DNA of 64,000 nucleotides. It comes from Promethearchaeota archaeon. GTDB lineage: Archaea; Asgardarchaeota; Lokiarchaeia; Sigyniarchaeales; SOKP01. The notes below the pieces were generated by a model. It was not told the origin of the DNA and did not search any database. It saw only the letters and a list, made by a program, of their open reading frames with translations. The position numbers and the translations under genes were made by a program. The stretch is taken from NCBI GenBank assembly GCA_048941015.1, contig JBHLNZ010000002.1, positions 32,001-96,000 on the forward strand, given 5' to 3'. Shown in pieces: positions 27,473 to 34,238 of this stretch (positions are counted from its first letter, which is position 1; every line of letters begins with the position of its first letter).

Positions 27473-28054
27473 ATGGGAAGAAGAAAAAGAAAACAGCAGA
27501 CTTATAAACGCGTAAAAAAAGTTCCTAAGATTTTCACTTGCCCAAACTGTGGGGAAAAGTCAGTAAAAGTGGAAAATATAAGGAAATCAGCAATTGCTAC
27601 TGTTAAATGTGGGCATTGCGGTTTAACTAAAGATGTATTGGTTAACTCTATTTCAGAACCAGTGGATGCTTTCGGTGATTTTATTGATATCTATTATGCT
27701 GATCAAGAAATTCAGAGACTAGAAAGACGTATTGCTAAATTAAAAAAGGATAACCAATGGGGGGAGCTTGCTCTTTCCTATTCAATTTTAGCAGATTTAT
27801 GTAAAGCAAAAGCTGCTGAGTTATTAGAAGATTCTGAAAATGTTGATGAAGATGAAGTATTAAGATGGAGATCAAAAGCTGAACAGTATAAGAAGCTAGA
27901 AAAGGAAGCATTACTACAACTAGAAACTCTTGAATTAGAAAAAGGTATTAAAACTGATGAAGAGTCATTATTTTCTGAACATGATGAAAGTGATATAAAA
28001 AAAGAACGAAAAATAAATGATATCTTTGATGATCCAGGATTTTTAGAATGGTAA
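27473..28054 (+). CDS. elf1: Transcription elongation factor Elf1 with long C-terminal extension
   Basis: MGRRKRK...FTCPNC...CGHC...EPVDAFGDFID is the Elf1 signature; about 115 extra helical/acidic residues follow. Confidence 0.85.
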   Translation: MGRRKRKQQTYKRVKKVPKIFTCPNCGEKSVKVENIRKSAIATVKCGHCGLTKDVLVNSISEPVDAFGDFIDIYYADQEIQRLERRIAKLKKDNQWGELALSYSILADLCKAKAAELLEDSENVDEDEVLRWRSKAEQYKKLEKEALLQLETLELEKGIKTDEESLFSEHDESDIKKERKINDIFDDPGFLEW

Positions 28055-29779
28055 ATTAGGTTTTAAAATTCTAATTTTTACTTTTGCAGGGATATATTTC
28101 CAAATAGGTAATTTTACAACAAACTGAAAAAATCGATTCATACTTAATTTATTTTTTAATATAAAATAGCTCCAATTACGAAAAGCTAAGTTATTAAAAA
28201 GGTGCATCAAGTTTACTCCAAAGATATTGTATCTAGAAGCAAGAAAACTTGCAAAGTATGCTCCAAATCTTTTAGTTTGAGGAATTGATTCTGGATATAC
28301 AGATTCTGAGAGAGCTCTATTAAATATTTCATAAATCGAGAATATCGGAATTAGATTATTCAGATTTTCTTCTACTTTTCTACTGTAATTTGGATTATCT
28401 AAAGATAAATTAGATAACTCATTTAATTTATATATAGCAAATTTGTAGTGTTTTTCTTTAAAGGAAAACCACATTTCTTCCATAGTAACTCTTAGATTTT
28501 TTAATATATTAAGTAGTTTTTTTTCATCAAAAGTAAAATGATATTTTTTTTCATAATATTTAATATATAATAGGAATATTGAATCAGGTATTTGTTTTTC
28601 AAAGTGATTAGTGTTATACCATTCTGAGAAGAAATCAATATCGTATTCTGTGGGAGTGTGAATTGTATGGGTATTTAAGGGAGTATTCCATATTAATTCA
28701 AGTAATTTTTCCATAAGTTTGATGGTATTAGTAAATTTCTCAATTATAGAATAATTTTGCTGCTTTTTAGGATTTCGAACTGATTTAGCTTTCGAGCGTT
28801 TAAATCGAATCTTAATTTTTTCGGTTATTTTTAATTGTTTAATAAATTCTTTCTTTTTTTTTTTATAGAGAATGATCTTTTTAATTAATAATTGTTTAAG
28901 CTTCATCAATTCTTTAATGTAAGAATAAAAGTCCACATTATATTTATTTAAAATTTCATGATAGCTAATTAATGGAATTTCAATATAAGGTCTATGTATT
29001 TTTGAATCAATTTTCATAGCATGATCTCCAATAGAATAGGAGAAAATAATCTTGTGAAGAACTTCTTTTAAATTCATGAAATTTCCCAATTTTTTTGGAT
29101 CATTCGTAAAATACCCATGCAAAAGGGTATCAATTCCCTTAAACACATTATTCTCATATTCAGAGATAATTACAGATTCAAACTCTCCTGGATGATGTCT
29201 TTTGATTTTAAATCTTTTTCCTACTAAAAAAATTGCTTGATTTGCTCTGTGGCAAACAGTGTGGCTCCATTTTAATATAGGTTCAAGAATCTTACCATAA
29301 GTGAGGTTATAACCATAAAATTCTGGTCCAAAATATATTGGAAATCCAAATCCACGAGAAGTAGAAAATGTAAACTGAAAAATGTTTCTTGTTTTCTCTC
29401 CTTTTAAAAATCCGGGAAATTTATAGTGTAAAGCAAATCGTGGGTATAATGCATCAAGCCCTAAATTCATCCATGCTTCAAATAGAAGTATGCTATCAGG
29501 GAATTTAAAGGAGTCTATTTTGCTTAATAAATTGTCACTTAAAGTATTTAATAAAGTGGGGATAGATTGAAGCCAGTTTTTTTCTATCTCAAACTTTTTT
29601 GCTCCTTTATTGAATTTTTTTAATAAAAGTGTCGTAATTTGATTTTGCAAACTAGCTTTTTTAAAATAATAATTATTTAAAACTCTAATAAAAGATGTTA
29701 TTTCTAATATTTGACGTTGAAGATCGTGAGTAACTCTGACATATAATGCTTGTTCAGAAAGATTTGAATTATGTAGCAA
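28043..29779 (-). CDS. Hypothetical protein (578 aa)
   Basis: Long ORF, no recognised motif. Confidence 0.6.
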   Translation of the reverse strand: MLHNSNLSEQALYVRVTHDLQRQILEITSFIRVLNNYYFKKASLQNQITTLLLKKFNKGAKKFEIEKNWLQSIPTLLNTLSDNLLSKIDSFKFPDSILLFEAWMNLGLDALYPRFALHYKFPGFLKGEKTRNIFQFTFSTSRGFGFPIYFGPEFYGYNLTYGKILEPILKWSHTVCHRANQAIFLVGKRFKIKRHHPGEFESVIISEYENNVFKGIDTLLHGYFTNDPKKLGNFMNLKEVLHKIIFSYSIGDHAMKIDSKIHRPYIEIPLISYHEILNKYNVDFYSYIKELMKLKQLLIKKIILYKKKKKEFIKQLKITEKIKIRFKRSKAKSVRNPKKQQNYSIIEKFTNTIKLMEKLLELIWNTPLNTHTIHTPTEYDIDFFSEWYNTNHFEKQIPDSIFLLYIKYYEKKYHFTFDEKKLLNILKNLRVTMEEMWFSFKEKHYKFAIYKLNELSNLSLDNPNYSRKVEENLNNLIPIFSIYEIFNRALSESVYPESIPQTKRFGAYFASFLASRYNIFGVNLMHLFNNLAFRNWSYFILKNKLSMNRFFQFVVKLPIWKYIPAKVKIRILKPNLPF

Positions 29780-29941: not shown

Positions 29942-30403
29942 TTATCCTTGTTGCTTTCTTCTACTAAATAATTCCTTTAATTCCCCCATTATTGCACCTC
30001 TTAATGTTAAAGGGGTAGCAGGCCGAGCAGGACCAGGTCCTCCCGGAGGGCCGCCAGGTGGAGGTGGAGGACCGCCAGGTGGACCACCAGGTGGTGGCAG
30101 AGGGCCGCCAGGTGGACCACTAGATGGAGGAGGAGCGCTAACAGGTGCAGATGGAGTGGATACCATAGGGGTAGCTCCAGCACCTCTTGTCTTTAAAGCT
30201 GCCACGTCATTATTCATAGTATTGATTCTAGATTCCAGATTGGAAATTTTTTGATTCAAAGTTGCTAAGGATTGATCGACCAAATCAGGAATCCTTAAAA
30301 TCATCATCATCATTTTTTCGACAATGTCTCCAAACGCATTTAATTTTTCTTCAATTGGGGCTCTTCGTGTCTCTTGCATAAAATTTGCGAATTCTTCTGC
30401 CAT
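29942..30403 (-). CDS. Coiled-coil + polyproline + C-terminal amphipathic/basic helix protein (WAVE/WASH/VASP-like architecture)
   Basis: LATLNQKISNLESRI coil; (G)GPPGGP-rich tract; GAIMGELKELFSRRK terminus; SD-like GAGAGGA upstream. Confidence 0.75.
   Translation of the reverse strand: MAEEFANFMQETRRAPIEEKLNAFGDIVEKMMMMILRIPDLVDQSLATLNQKISNLESRINTMNNDVAALKTRGAGATPMVSTPSAPVSAPPPSSGPPGGPLPPPGGPPGGPPPPPGGPPGGPGPARPATPLTLRGAIMGELKELFSRRKQQG
30029..30134 (-). repeat. GC-rich imperfect repeat encoding GPPGGP/PPPPP units
   Basis: Recurrent ccgccaggtgga/ccaccaggtgg units within the 153-aa CDS. Confidence 0.7.
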
Positions 30404-30548
30404 TTTCCTCTCTCAATAGTTATTAATATTGAATACGACTAGTATTTTTTTTTAATAATTATATATTTGATATGTTTAATAAATTTAAGTTCATCTGAAT
30501 TAGTAGAAATTCAAGTTACAATTATAAAAAAAATAGATTATTTTAAAT

Positions 30549-31181
30549 TTAACTTGATTTGTTAACTGAATTTTTTAAAATTATCCATAAATTATCAAGT
30601 TCATCTCTTACTTCTATAAATTGGTGGATCTTTTTAAGAAGAACATCTCTCGCCCGATCAAAATCTCTTTGAAAATCGTTTAATTCGGCTTCTAAAAGCT
30701 TCATTTTATCGCCTTCCATTAAGTCATTTTTTTTCTTTTCAACTGTTAGAGCTTTTTTAATAACAGCAGCTCTTTTGTTTGCAACTTCAATTAAAGCATC
30801 GGCTAATTCTTCTTTCTTTTGAATGAAATATTCCTTATTTACAATTAAATTTTTGATAGCATCAATATAGCCATTATTAACTTTAATATATTCTTCATTT
30901 TTTCGAATGATATCATGAAATAGATTTACTTCTTCATCTTTTACATTAGCTCTTTTCTCTCTTACTAAAGTTTGCATTTGTTTTAAAACATCACGAAAAG
31001 ATCTATTAAGCATATCTCGTTCGACATTAGCTTTAGTTAAATCATCAGCATACTTTTTTTGAGAACTAATTAGAGCGCTTTGGGCTTTTGCCAATTTTTT
31101 AATTTCTTTAACTAGATCTTTTTCCATACTGGCTAATTCCAGTTCATCTTCATGGGTGATTATAGGACTCATTTTAGACAT
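30549..31181 (-). CDS. All-helical 210-aa protein, BAR-domain-like
   Basis: Three long amphipathic helices; the C-terminal KRAAVIKK...EKKKNDL..DKMKLLEAELNDFQRDFDRAR pattern resembles SNX/Vps5 BAR helices 2-3. Confidence 0.5.
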   Translation of the reverse strand: MSKMSPIITHEDELELASMEKDLVKEIKKLAKAQSALISSQKKYADDLTKANVERDMLNRSFRDVLKQMQTLVREKRANVKDEEVNLFHDIIRKNEEYIKVNNGYIDAIKNLIVNKEYFIQKKEELADALIEVANKRAAVIKKALTVEKKKNDLMEGDKMKLLEAELNDFQRDFDRARDVLLKKIHQFIEVRDELDNLWIILKNSVNKSS

Positions 31182-31255
31182 TTTATATTTAACAAATTTT
31201 AATATTATTCTTATGTAAATTCTTAATTATATTTTTTAGTCTTTTTTTAATTTGA

Positions 31256-32293
31256 CTATGTTATTGGATATGATGCTGTTAAAATATTATCCTTATAATT
31301 TGCTTTGATTACTTTCGCTTTAATTACTTTCCCTATTAGATCTTCAGAAAAAGTTAATGGTCTTTTTAGCAGTACTTTTATACCAACATTGTTATTAATT
31401 TTACCAATACATTCCCAATTCCACCTACCTTGTGAGACAATCTGTAGGTTTATAAGATCATTTTTTTTTAAAGCTGAAGAATACGAAGTAGTTCGTTTAT
31501 GTATTCCAAAATCTTTTGGACCTAGTTTCAATTTAATATTATATTTTTTTTCTAATTTCGACAGATATTTATAAAAATAATCCCAAGATTTGGGACGGAT
31601 TTTTTTCAATTTTCTTCCAGTTTTATATATTAAATATTTTTGAATGCCTATTTGAATTTTGAGTTCAGAATAACCTTCATTACGTAAATTTAAAACATAT
31701 TGAATTATTTCTTCAATATCCAAGTCATTTACACCAGGAAACCAGACTGGAGCAATTAAAACATTAATATTGGTGTTTAATAGAGTTTCAATGTTTTTAA
31801 TAACTTTGTGTAGATCATAATTCGAACAATCACATAAATAGTATGCTAAATCTTCATTTAATGTGTTTAAACTTATGTTGATACGAGTTAGGTTGTTATT
31901 ATTTAACATTTGAATGTTTTTTGAATTAAGCATTATCCCATTACTTTGCATAGAAACAACTTTTATTCCTTTAACATTCCATAGCTCACTTAAGAGTTTA
32001 AATAAATCTGGATAAAGTAGTATTTCACCATACGGAGCAATATGAATTTCTATATCATGATATCCTTTTATTTTCACTAAAGATTTTACTTTTTTTATAA
32101 GGTATTTATATTCAACTATAAAATTAGTATGATAATCACCAGCTTTTACAAAACAGTATTTGCATTTGAGGTTACATAAAGTTATAGGTTTAAGTTCAAT
32201 TATATTTGTCCCACGATCAATTAAACCGATAAAATCTACACCCATTATGGGGATATTAGAATTCTCATCAATATGAATAAAATTATTTATCAT
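31256..32293 (-). CDS. Archaeal radical SAM protein (COG2100-like)
   Basis: GLIDRGTNIIE, CNLKCKYC, C-terminal beta domain. Confidence 0.85.
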   Translation of the reverse strand: MINNFIHIDENSNIPIMGVDFIGLIDRGTNIIELKPITLCNLKCKYCFVKAGDYHTNFIVEYKYLIKKVKSLVKIKGYHDIEIHIAPYGEILLYPDLFKLLSELWNVKGIKVVSMQSNGIMLNSKNIQMLNNNNLTRINISLNTLNEDLAYYLCDCSNYDLHKVIKNIETLLNTNINVLIAPVWFPGVNDLDIEEIIQYVLNLRNEGYSELKIQIGIQKYLIYKTGRKLKKIRPKSWDYFYKYLSKLEKKYNIKLKLGPKDFGIHKRTTSYSSALKKNDLINLQIVSQGRWNWECIGKINNNVGIKVLLKRPLTFSEDLIGKVIKAKVIKANYKDNILTASYPIT

Positions 32294-32319
32294 TTCTATT
32301 AAAAATTTATACTTATTAC

Positions 32320-33393
32320 TTAATTTTTATATCGTAAAATAGCAACAAGAGATCCTAAGTCTTTAATTTGTTTCCCCGTTGGATGATCACTACTGAGAAT
32401 ATGAATTTTACCTCCCTGATTTTCAACATCAGTCAGAATCTTCTCAATTTTGAGTTTTTGATCTTTGGTTGCCCCTCTAATTAAAATATCGACACAAAAT
32501 AATTCCTTAATTGCTCCCTTTTGGGCAGCTTTAGATACTTCATTGGAACCAATAGCAATCATATCAGGATCAGTCCCTAATAACATAAGAATTTCTTCAA
32601 TTTTTTCAGACTCTTGTAAAATTCTTATATTCTTTTTTATTGAGATTAAATCTTTTGATTTTAGAGTTTCTAAAATTCCACTTTCGGTCCCTGAACTTGC
32701 ATGAATACTCTTTATTATTGAGAGATATTCTGGATTGGATTTTTCCTTAATGTATTTGATAAAAAGATCACGTGTATTGCCAGGTCCACATATTACTATT
32801 AAATTTATTTGAATATCATTTGATTTTTCATCAATAATTTTCTTTATAATAGAAAAAAATTCTTCTAAAGCCTTTTTACGATGTGATTGTTCATATCTTT
32901 TTCCAGGAATCGTTTTTTTTACTGTAGCTATCTTATTATGACTGAAATTCGTTATTAACTCTATAGTAGATAAACCTGTTTCAATGGCAATCATAAGAAT
33001 TATAAAATTACTCTCAAATTTAGAGGATTCTTTTAAACGTTTTAATTCACTTCTAAGCCATTCTTCCTTAATAATTGTTAATGTTTGTCCAATTTCTATA
33101 TTAAAAGTATGATAAGTTCCGAAGCTAACAAAATCTTCTGGACCTTCTAAAATTGTTCCTTTAACTCTTAACCTATTTGAAAATTCATGAAACGATACTG
33201 CCTCTACTTTCAATTTTAGTGTCATGGGTTTTCTTTCTCCTTTTGATCCTTCTTTTAAGACAACTCTCCTATGGGTTCGAGCTATAACTTTATCATTTTC
33301 TGAAATTAAGTTGTAAAGCGTCCAAAGATCGTTCAGACTCTCCACTTTAACAGTGATCTCTTGAGTTTTTTTGTTAATTTCCAGAATTTTCAA
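32320..33393 (-). CDS. pelA: Pelota/Dom34 ribosome rescue factor
   Basis: ESLNDLWTLYNLI, FHEFSNRLRVKG, YHT, IPGKR, AILRY. Confidence 0.93.
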   Translation of the reverse strand: MKILEINKKTQEITVKVESLNDLWTLYNLISENDKVIARTHRRVVLKEGSKGERKPMTLKLKVEAVSFHEFSNRLRVKGTILEGPEDFVSFGTYHTFNIEIGQTLTIIKEEWLRSELKRLKESSKFESNFIILMIAIETGLSTIELITNFSHNKIATVKKTIPGKRYEQSHRKKALEEFFSIIKKIIDEKSNDIQINLIVICGPGNTRDLFIKYIKEKSNPEYLSIIKSIHASSGTESGILETLKSKDLISIKKNIRILQESEKIEEILMLLGTDPDMIAIGSNEVSKAAQKGAIKELFCVDILIRGATKDQKLKIEKILTDVENQGGKIHILSSDHPTGKQIKDLGSLVAILRYKN

Positions 33394-33527
33394 ATTTTAT
33401 ACCAATCTTAATAGATGATTTGCGATAATTAAAAGTAGTGATGTATATTTCAAAAGGTTAATTTTGTCTAAAATAAGATAATTTGAAGATAATAAAAAAA
33501 TAAATAAAAAAGCTGTTAACAATTAAA

Positions 33528-33680
33528 TTATTCATTTGCTCCAAGAGCTTGCTTTACTTTTTCCAACTCTTCCATACGTTTCTTTTTCTCTTCTTCGCGG
33601 CGTTTTAATTCCTCCTCATCTACTTTTTGTAGACTGACTCCTTTCTTAATCTCTTCCTGCAATTCTTTATCTATAGGCAT
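33528..33680 (-). CDS. 50-aa WH2-motif microprotein (below the ORF-track cutoff)
   Basis: Manual translation MPIDKELQEEIKKGVSLQKVDEEELKRREEEKKKRMEELEKVKQALGANE*; upstream AAGGTGTTGAGGA SD-like sequence; higher GC than the flanks. Confidence 0.75.
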   Translation of the reverse strand: MPIDKELQEEIKKGVSLQKVDEEELKRREEEKKKRMEELEKVKQALGANE

Positions 33681-33782: not shown

Positions 33783-34238
33783 CTAAAATTTTAATTCCAT
33801 CAAATAAGCGCTTTCTTTTTGACGATAATACTGTTCAATTTTACCTATTATACGGAAATTGAATTTCTTATATAAATCTATTGCACTTACATTTGTAGTT
33901 TTAACATTTAAAATAATCCTTTTAACTCCTTTTATTTTTTTAATCCGTTCTAGCGTTTTGTTTAAAAGAAGTGAACCATATCCTAGTTTTTGAAATTTCT
34001 TTTGAATAACAAAATTAATTATATTTACTCTGTCTTCATCATCTTTTATAGCAATGACGAAACCAATGATCTTTTTACTTAAGTTATTGTCTTCGATTTT
34101 TAAAAATAAAGTATTTTGTAAGATTAGTTTTTTTATTGTTTCTCTTGAAAATGCATCTTCTCTAAACATTTTTTTTTCTATTTTGATAAGTTGTTCTAAA
34201 TCATTCAATTCAACACGTTCAATCATCATTAGAATCAA
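33783..34238 (-). CDS. rimI: RimI/Ard1-like GNAT N-acetyltransferase
   Basis: FQKLGYGSLLL, LNVKTTNVSAIDLYKKFNF, YY...AYLM. Confidence 0.8.
   Translation of the reverse strand: MILMMIERVELNDLEQLIKIEKKMFREDAFSRETIKKLILQNTLFLKIEDNNLSKKIIGFVIAIKDDEDRVNIINFVIQKKFQKLGYGSLLLNKTLERIKKIKGVKRIILNVKTTNVSAIDLYKKFNFRIIGKIEQYYRQKESAYLMELKF

Follow-up and report, generated by a model that had tools for sequence, protein, structure and literature searches.

This study concerns three small genes, here called A, B and C, in a stretch of 64,000 nucleotides (the window) from a Promethearchaeota archaeon (GTDB lineage Archaea; Asgardarchaeota; Lokiarchaeia; Sigyniarchaeales; SOKP01), corresponding to positions 32,001 to 96,000 of the forward strand of contig JBHLNZ010000002.1 in the GenBank assembly GCA_048941015.1. 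The original prediction, made from the sequence of the window, took these genes for a single locus of actin assembly at membranes. Our data on balance favour two separate units instead: a neighbouring pair, in which B encodes a protein with a predicted BAR-like fold and A a putative adaptor of the kind that also forms the tail of small GTPases, and an independent gene C, which encodes a WH2/thymosin-like microprotein. The observation behind the prediction was confirmed and its interpretation is partly supported: three open reading frames (ORFs) lie on the minus strand within about 3.7 kb, exactly where they had been placed (Table 1), a radical-SAM gene and pelota stand between B and C, and the layouts described for the three proteins were borne out. 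All three are real and conserved genes, and none is a chance ORF. Scans against Pfam and NCBIfam returned nothing usable for A, B or C, while the same scans name the neighbouring enzymes and pelota. From the genes, their conservation, layouts, fusions, predicted folds and neighbourhoods we infer the binding partners and activities proposed below. The assembly, its family and its order are referred to as the home genome, home family and home order, and the sister family belongs to the same order.

Gene A and the tails of small GTPases

Homologs of A number more than 170, every one of them labelled hypothetical, and the gene is present in 98 of the 201 Asgard genomes sampled across the phylum. 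The AlphaFold model comprises helices at residues 2-13 and 17-74 (predicted local distance difference test, pLDDT, >90), a disordered stretch at residues 75-130 (pLDDT <50) and a final helix at residues 131-152, and alignments reveal that this head, arm and tail are kept across Asgard classes. Compared with the PDB, the profile of the head matched chiefly trimeric coiled coils. The end helix was aligned for 22 tails, among them those of GTPases; throughout the phylum its E-L-K never varies and its R, L and F hardly do, with ELKxLF as a near-invariant consensus.

The whole head-arm-tail module is found again as the C-terminal extension of Arf/RagA-like GTPases. Hidden Markov models (HMMs) of the head and of the tail of A both match GTPases of the home genome (L108, L109) as well as others elsewhere (L099, L100, L102, L103), and the GTPase part of these fusions is confirmed by the Pfam models Arf and Gtr1_RagA. 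The extensions share their order of parts with A: a coil resembling the head comes first, a linker rich in K and P follows, and a [IL]xSELKxxFxKKG helix is terminal. A differs from these proteins in having a true polyproline as its arm and no GTPase domain. Judged by its sequence, A is a free-standing form of this Asgard Arf/RagA-like GTPase tail module. A search for longer homologs, that is, for fusions, recovered one Arf-like protein, the search being crowded by polyproline words, and the tail HMM had no match to the long profilins of the home genome. The published papers on Asgard Arf proteins that we searched do not describe the tail module; published analyses have trimmed the extensions.

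A-head-like segments occur in Arf-like and in Ras-like GTPases. Single parts of the module were also observed in two Ras-family GTPases (Table 1): in one, the tail motif PATPVSLRGAIMSELKQIL stands alone and internally, after the G domain; in the other, an A-head-like segment stands alone before the G domain.

The arm differs between lineages: a true polyproline (GPPGGPPPPPGG) is limited to the home order, and other classes possess P/A/S/G-rich linkers. At the DNA level the Pro/Gly tract is a GC island (62-68% GC against 28% GC in the genome) and is composed of GC-rich imperfect 33-nt tandem repeats. Such an island argues for selection on the peptide.

The original prediction had read A as a relative of BRK1 and the locus as a forerunner of WAVE/WASH, a reading that did not hold. 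The head of A shares with BRK1/HSPC300 a heptad repeat and a single long helix of about the same length. The profile match to BRK1 is non-significant (3P8C_E, E = 0.32, 14.3 bits) and ranks below about 40 unrelated coiled coils, for which reason we treat it as noise; the BRK1-resembling stretch 'LATLN' is specific to this A sequence and, according to the alignment, not a family feature; and a CYFIP-type partner was not found in the home genome, where PF05994 had no match at E <= 1 (assembly 95% complete).

A comparison with Ena/VASP (EVH1 - proline-rich - GAB/FAB - tetramerising coil) reveals a similar set of parts in A, namely an oligomerising-type coil, a tract of the GPPPPP type and a short helix that is amphipathic and basic, but in reversed order with the coil first. 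The Pfam scan of A (E <= 1) found neither WH1/EVH1 nor VASP_tetra, and no test of kinship between A and Ena/VASP was positive. Against the PDB (E <= 10) the tail profile gave two matches: a quinone reductase, and the WH2 helix of Cordon-bleu (Cobl), which is aligned in register but weakly (E = 3.1). The tail, which may resemble the FAB helix of VASP, is without the LKKV half of WH2. With respect to the proline tract of A, the Loki and Odin profilins that have been crystallised are reported not to bind the polyproline of VASP (PMC8410842).

A 15-nt element and a TATA-like box upstream of A (Table 1) could be aligned in seven genomes from four genera and are kept across at least three genera; they may represent a promoter or the site of a regulator. 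A T-run follows the stop codon of B in the B-A spacer.

No cytoskeletal neighbours of A were found in other classes, in which PGM, VTT-domain, UbiA, glycosyltransferase and molybdopterin genes are found instead. In several non-Loki classes, including Odin-type genomes (L037, L038, L041, L050), A lies between a VTT-domain (DedA/Tvp38-like) gene and a gene of about 440 amino acids (aa), all in the same orientation.

Gene B, its paralog B2 and the B-A pair

A word search yielded 522 homologs of B, hundreds of which are near-identical, and an exhaustive profile search among 1.8 billion representatives yielded 51, nearly all with a length of about 207 aa. The predicted structure (pLDDT 91.4) consists of three long helices (residues 10-74, 82-152 and 157-206), and two motifs are invariant in the family, PIITxEDE at the N-terminus and W..LK at the C-terminus. 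In a Foldseek search with this model the top matches were nearly all BAR domains, with arfaptin first and none at E < 0.001. VIA-align, run against 48,161 chains, likewise placed arfaptin first, with 186 residues aligned and a Z of 13.4, in a range (about 13) that the tool's own caveat calls borderline for long helical bundles; the BAR domains of SNX1, Lsp1, ACAP4 and APPL1 ranked next. The named ESM neighbours of B are BAR/FAM92 clusters (scores <0.9). An ESCRT-III-like fold was also considered and rejected as the weaker match (Vipp1, Z 9.2 versus 13.4 for arfaptin).

Like arfaptin and other BAR domains (PDB 1I49, 4DCN; SNX1 4FZS; ACAP4 9JIH), B is thus predicted to be a three-helix bundle of about 200 residues. 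In contrast to these domains, it shows no kinship in sequence either with the BAR families of Pfam or with the FAM92-type family of Asgard archaea, and the likeness is that of a single-chain model. The BAR-like character claimed for B in the original prediction is consequently retained at the level of the predicted monomer fold only (model, Foldseek, VIA-align), and no sequence test supports kinship.

B is a single-copy gene restricted to the home order, where it occurs in 38 of 40 home-family and two of three sister-family genomes. In all home-family genomes whose contigs allow the check, B is located directly upstream of A, and the adjacency first noticed in the window accordingly represents a neighbour pair that is conserved within one order. 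In genome G165 of the sister family A and B are also adjacent, with their order swapped and with different flanking genes. In home-family genomes the position directly upstream of B is always taken by the radical-SAM gene, which is outside the proposed system.

Lineages of the sister family possess a paralog of about 209 aa, B2, which keeps the end motifs of B, and two genomes (G165 and G089) carry both. Distant B-like sequences, at first candidates for B homologs from other Asgard classes, were rejected as such and are this same paralog from the same order. At four loci (Table 1) B2 comes after a longin-like gene (gene X, about 160 aa) and is located either immediately upstream of Vps4 and ESCRT-II or at most 2.7 kb from Vps4. 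Such neighbours of B2 suggest a role of the B family in membrane remodelling. The ESCRT cluster of the home genome is on a different contig from B and A, with Vps4 on G000:C52. At one of the B2 loci (L121) an actin-family gene is found 0.5 kb beyond ESCRT-II.

Gene C, a WH2/thymosin-like microprotein

C was found in 38 of 40 home-family genomes and in all three of the sister family, and in no other family. Invariant are E6, L7, I11, K12, G14 and L17 together with a charged helix. The sequence ELQEEIKKGVSLQKV conforms to the WH2 motif LLxxIxxGxxL[KR][KR][VT] with correct spacing; its 'LQKV' end is variable, as LxKV is replaced in some genera by LEKP, LASP or LSPV. The best natural PDB match over the motif is a chain with the tandem WH2 of N-WASP (E = 0.17). 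The Pfam models for WH2 (PF02205) and thymosin recognised none of 14 members of the C family at E <= 10 and nothing genome-wide at E <= 1. A regular expression for the WH2-like core occurs once in the proteome, in C, where about 1.0 occurrences are expected by chance, and a stricter pattern defined post hoc occurs once against 0.1 expected. Since observation and expectation for the core are about equal, the pattern was rejected as stand-alone evidence.

The WH2/thymosin reading of C is based not on statistics but on the conservation of the motif, on a maintained fusion with profilin and on an array of nine repeats. In genus g6 a genuine Asgard profilin domain (5ZZA_P, E = 2e-9) is joined to a C-like module reading LIEFFTKGGKLEKVDE, and this fusion is maintained in at least four species with 65-86% identity. 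In genome G089 a protein of about 490 aa is made up of nine tandem C-like repeats of 45-50 aa each, the first of which reads KKILEEIKKGPALQKVDE. WH2 nucleators and multi-thymosins are built in this way. The WH2 motif pointed out in the original prediction gains weight from fusion, array and conservation, and is not established by the Pfam models or by the N-WASP match.

The likeness to WH2 domains and beta-thymosins (N-WASP, WAVE, Cobl, Spire; thymosin beta-4, ciboulot) comprises an amphipathic helix, a Gly and an L-x-K-V at the spacing of WH2, a second helix as in thymosins, and an occurrence as free protein, in tandem arrays and beside profilin-related functions. Unlike in WH2, the repeat unit of C measures 45-50 aa and includes a conserved charged helix (KKRMEELEKV); unlike either family, C stays below all HMM thresholds, and the LxKV half drifts. 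Of the three genes, C is the best candidate for actin binding, and the profilin fusion and the nine-repeat array lend indirect support to a possible binding of actin monomers at the barbed-face cleft.

The functional linkage of C to the other two genes, also part of the original prediction, was not sustained. In G165 C is 78 kb away from A, yet it still adjoins a RimI-like GNAT acetyltransferase gene (in the order GNAT, then C); no other neighbour of C is retained in the sister family as well. C is linked to GNAT and not to A or B, and its presence here is synteny at the family level only. The comparison across relatives that had been named as a check thus returned a divided answer: the B-A pair is kept within the order, and the linkage of C to A and B is not.

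Actin, profilins and published context

Outside the window, the home genome (assembly of 3.59 Mb) has genes for Lokiactin (G000:C3:45763-46875) and three actin paralogs, for a canonical profilin and for several extended ones. To our knowledge, profilins and gelsolins are the only established actin regulators of Asgard archaea. Extended profilins are found in 40 of 40 home-family genomes, and the polyproline form of the arm of A, the genes B and C and the long profilins are all restricted to this order. The extension of the long profilins carries …GLSGYINYYLQQN…ELAKIYAELRQIFG…, and a 428-aa form runs into a domain that by eye looks like a methyltransferase type.

In L. ossiferum, co-immunoprecipitation of Lokiactin enriched profilin, gelsolins and an ARF GTPase, and a pair of BAR-domain proteins was detected below significance in the same experiment (PMC13716822). 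WH2-like motifs in Asgard archaea have been published only within two-domain gelsolins, and none of the papers that we searched describes family A, B or C.

Neighbouring genes

The window is AT-rich (about 28% GC). The 578-aa gene directly 3' of A is present with 48-61% identity in most home-family genomes and is absent or a remnant in some, in which A abuts the gene of the Elf1 transcription elongation factor homolog. Kinship of this gene with the gene of about 440 aa that lies 3' of A in Odin-type genomes was considered, and none was found. The Elf1 homolog of the window is extended at its C-terminus by a charged, helical stretch of about 110 residues, and Elf1 adjoins A in the sister family too (L031, L032).

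Table 1. Positions of the genes and elements of the window, followed by loci elsewhere; positions without a locus, genome or contig handle are those of the window.
Feature	Position	Strand	Description
Gene A, 153 aa	29942..30403	minus	ORF; helical head, Pro/Gly arm and end helix
A head, residues 1-74	30182..30403	minus	near-invariant N-terminal segment (AEEF..F..P.EEK.N.FGDI.E), then heptad coil
A arm, residues 75-130	30014..30181	minus	disordered Pro/Gly linker with GPPGGPPPPPGGPPGG
A end helix, residues 131-153	29945..30013	minus	LRGAIMGELKELFSRRKQQG; amphipathic, basic
Element TTAAATTTATTAAAC (15 nt) and TATA-like TATATAAT	30456..30488	minus	55-85 nt 5' of the A start; candidate promoter or regulator site
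Gene B, 210 aa	30549..31181	minus	three long helices, BAR (arfaptin)-like predicted fold
Radical-SAM gene	31256..32293	minus	Pfam PF04055, 73 bits
Pelota	32320..33393	minus	housekeeping mRNA surveillance; TIGR00111, 242 bits
Gene C, 50 aa	33528..33680	minus	WH2/beta-thymosin-like motif ELQEEIKKGVSLQKVD, then charged helix
RimI-like GNAT acetyltransferase	33783..34238	minus	TIGR01575, 82 bits
578-aa gene	28043-29779	minus	directly 3' of A; no Pfam/NCBIfam match
Elf1 transcription elongation factor homolog	27473-28054	plus	Pfam, 69.6 bits
B2 locus	L121:3427-7090
B2 locus	L124:421-3556
B2 locus	L125:3515-8630
B2 locus	L160 (G165:C27:54500-61500)
Profilin-C fusions, 251-258 aa	L082:1198-1953 (G144)	minus	profilin, linker, C-like module, conserved end domain of ~50 aa; also L127, L128, L129
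Nine-repeat C-like array	L085:1291-2793 (G089:C72)	plus	~490-aa protein
Long profilin of home genome	G000:C101:6393-6929		profilin, S/G-rich linker, conserved helical extension
Long profilin of home genome	C58:114348-114734		same layout; 18 kb past the window end
Long profilin of home genome	C67:7104-7484		same layout
Ras-family GTPase	L098:1384-2601 (G104)	plus	tail motif alone, internal
Ras-family GTPase	L104:271-1248 (G077)	minus	A-head-like segment alone

Discussion

The preferred reading assigns the three genes to a B-A pair and an independent C. A would be an oligomerising adaptor, with a coiled-coil head, a flexible proline-rich arm and an end helix that docks on an Asgard-wide partner. 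Because an identical head-arm-helix module ends the Arf/RagA-like GTPases, A most likely competes with, or scaffolds, whatever the tails of these GTPases bind at the interface of membrane and cytoskeleton. B, with its predicted BAR-like fold, probably dimerises on membranes or on small GTPases, and the function of the B-A unit would be membrane remodelling, perhaps with cytoskeletal coupling. C would be a free-standing WH2/beta-thymosin-like module which probably binds actin monomers. The occurrence of the A module as a GTPase tail and the position of B2 beside Vps4 and ESCRT-II, both absent from the original prediction, point away from a dedicated actin nucleator.

Several results, in addition to the borderline Z score of B, weigh against this reading. 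B had no match in Pfam, the BAR families included; hhalign gave a probability of 1.8-5% for the Asgard FAM92-type BAR family, that is, no relation; and the profile of B, compared with PDB sequences, found designed bundles only. No member of the A, B or C families matches the Pfam models for WH2, thymosin or VASP. Most of the evidence for B-A adjacency comes from one family and is essentially one evolutionary sample, and in G089 the pair is broken, A and B being on different contigs. Judging from the sequence upstream of its start, A probably has its own promoter and may not be co-transcribed with B. Finally, the proteins co-purified from L. ossiferum need not be orthologs of A, B or C.

An explanation closer to the original one is a toolkit ancestral to WAVE and VASP, in which A combines a BRK1-like coil, a polyproline that recruits profilin-actin and a WH2/FAB-like helix into a factor for filament elongation or nucleation, B leads to curved membranes and C supplies or sequesters monomers. 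We regard this explanation as unlikely. The layout of A with its coil, GPPPPP-type arm and amphipathic basic helix agrees with it, as do the strong selection on the Pro tract and the actins and profilins encoded in the genome; however, the BRK1 match ranks below unrelated coiled coils, a CYFIP was not found, and head and tail stay conserved outside the order although the arm there is no polyproline. That the Cordon-bleu WH2 helix is one of only two PDB matches to the tail, and in register, has to be weighed against its non-significance and the missing LKKV half. The joint restriction of polyproline, B, C and long profilins to one order, and the ARF GTPase and BAR proteins that came down with Lokiactin, also count in favour of this explanation. 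Against it, the neighbours of A in the other classes include nothing cytoskeletal, C shows no linkage to A, and the polyproline of VASP was not bound by the Loki and Odin profilins that were crystallised.

Two further explanations were considered. On the one hand, the helix that ends A and the GTPase tails may be an amphipathic targeting helix of the MinD/FtsA type that replaces lipid anchors, A then being a tethered coiled-coil spacer. The helix is indeed amphipathic with a basic end, and in Arf/RagA-like and Ras-like GTPases it occupies the extreme C-terminus after a flexible linker, which is the site of the hypervariable linker and anchor in eukaryotes. Targeting helices, however, usually conserve amphipathicity and not sequence, whereas the E-L-K of this helix is invariant across the phylum and its R, L and F almost invariant, which suggests a specific protein partner; moreover, the motif is internal and not terminal in one Ras-family GTPase (L098). 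We therefore hold a membrane anchor to be very unlikely. On the other hand, B or B2 and A may work together with Vps4 and ESCRT, in which case the MIT domain of Vps4 would bind the arm and end helix of A as MIM2- and MIM1-like ligands, and B would be a cofactor that shapes membranes. MIT ligands have the general form of a proline-rich stretch followed by an amphipathic helix, in accordance with A. The four B2 loci near Vps4 speak for this explanation, and fusions of Vps5-type BAR domains with Vps28, a subunit of ESCRT-I, have been described from Thorarchaeia by Eme et al. 2023 (PMC10307638). The ESCRT linkage, however, concerns B2 only and a single sister lineage, with the ESCRT cluster of the home genome on another contig; A has no ESCRT neighbour in any class, its tail departs by eye from the charge pattern of MIM1, and the VIA score for an ESCRT-III-type fold (Vipp1) is well below those of BAR domains. 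Among the explanations considered here we judge this one the least likely.

A more far-reaching possibility is that Loki-type Asgard archaea own a minimal actin-assembly kit whose parts were later seen in eukaryotes. In such a kit C would be the WH2/thymosin module, used free, fused to profilin or as a nine-fold, nucleator-like array; A would be Ena/VASP-like, with a polyproline and an actin-docking helix; the same tail would let Arf-like GTPases engage actin; and B would tie the whole to curved membranes. That all of these roles hold jointly is, in our estimation, quite unlikely.

The question these families address is how filament nucleation, elongation and membrane coupling are organised in the closest relatives of eukaryotes. 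The A, B and C families are small, abundant in metagenomes and very strongly conserved. That the A module serves as a GTPase tail and that B2 accompanies Vps4 and ESCRT-II points to a common docking system that may connect small GTPases, membrane shaping and possibly actin; such a system, if it exists, bears on the way in which eukaryotic trafficking and the cytoskeleton became connected. If C binds actin, regulation of the WH2/thymosin type predates the eukaryotes.

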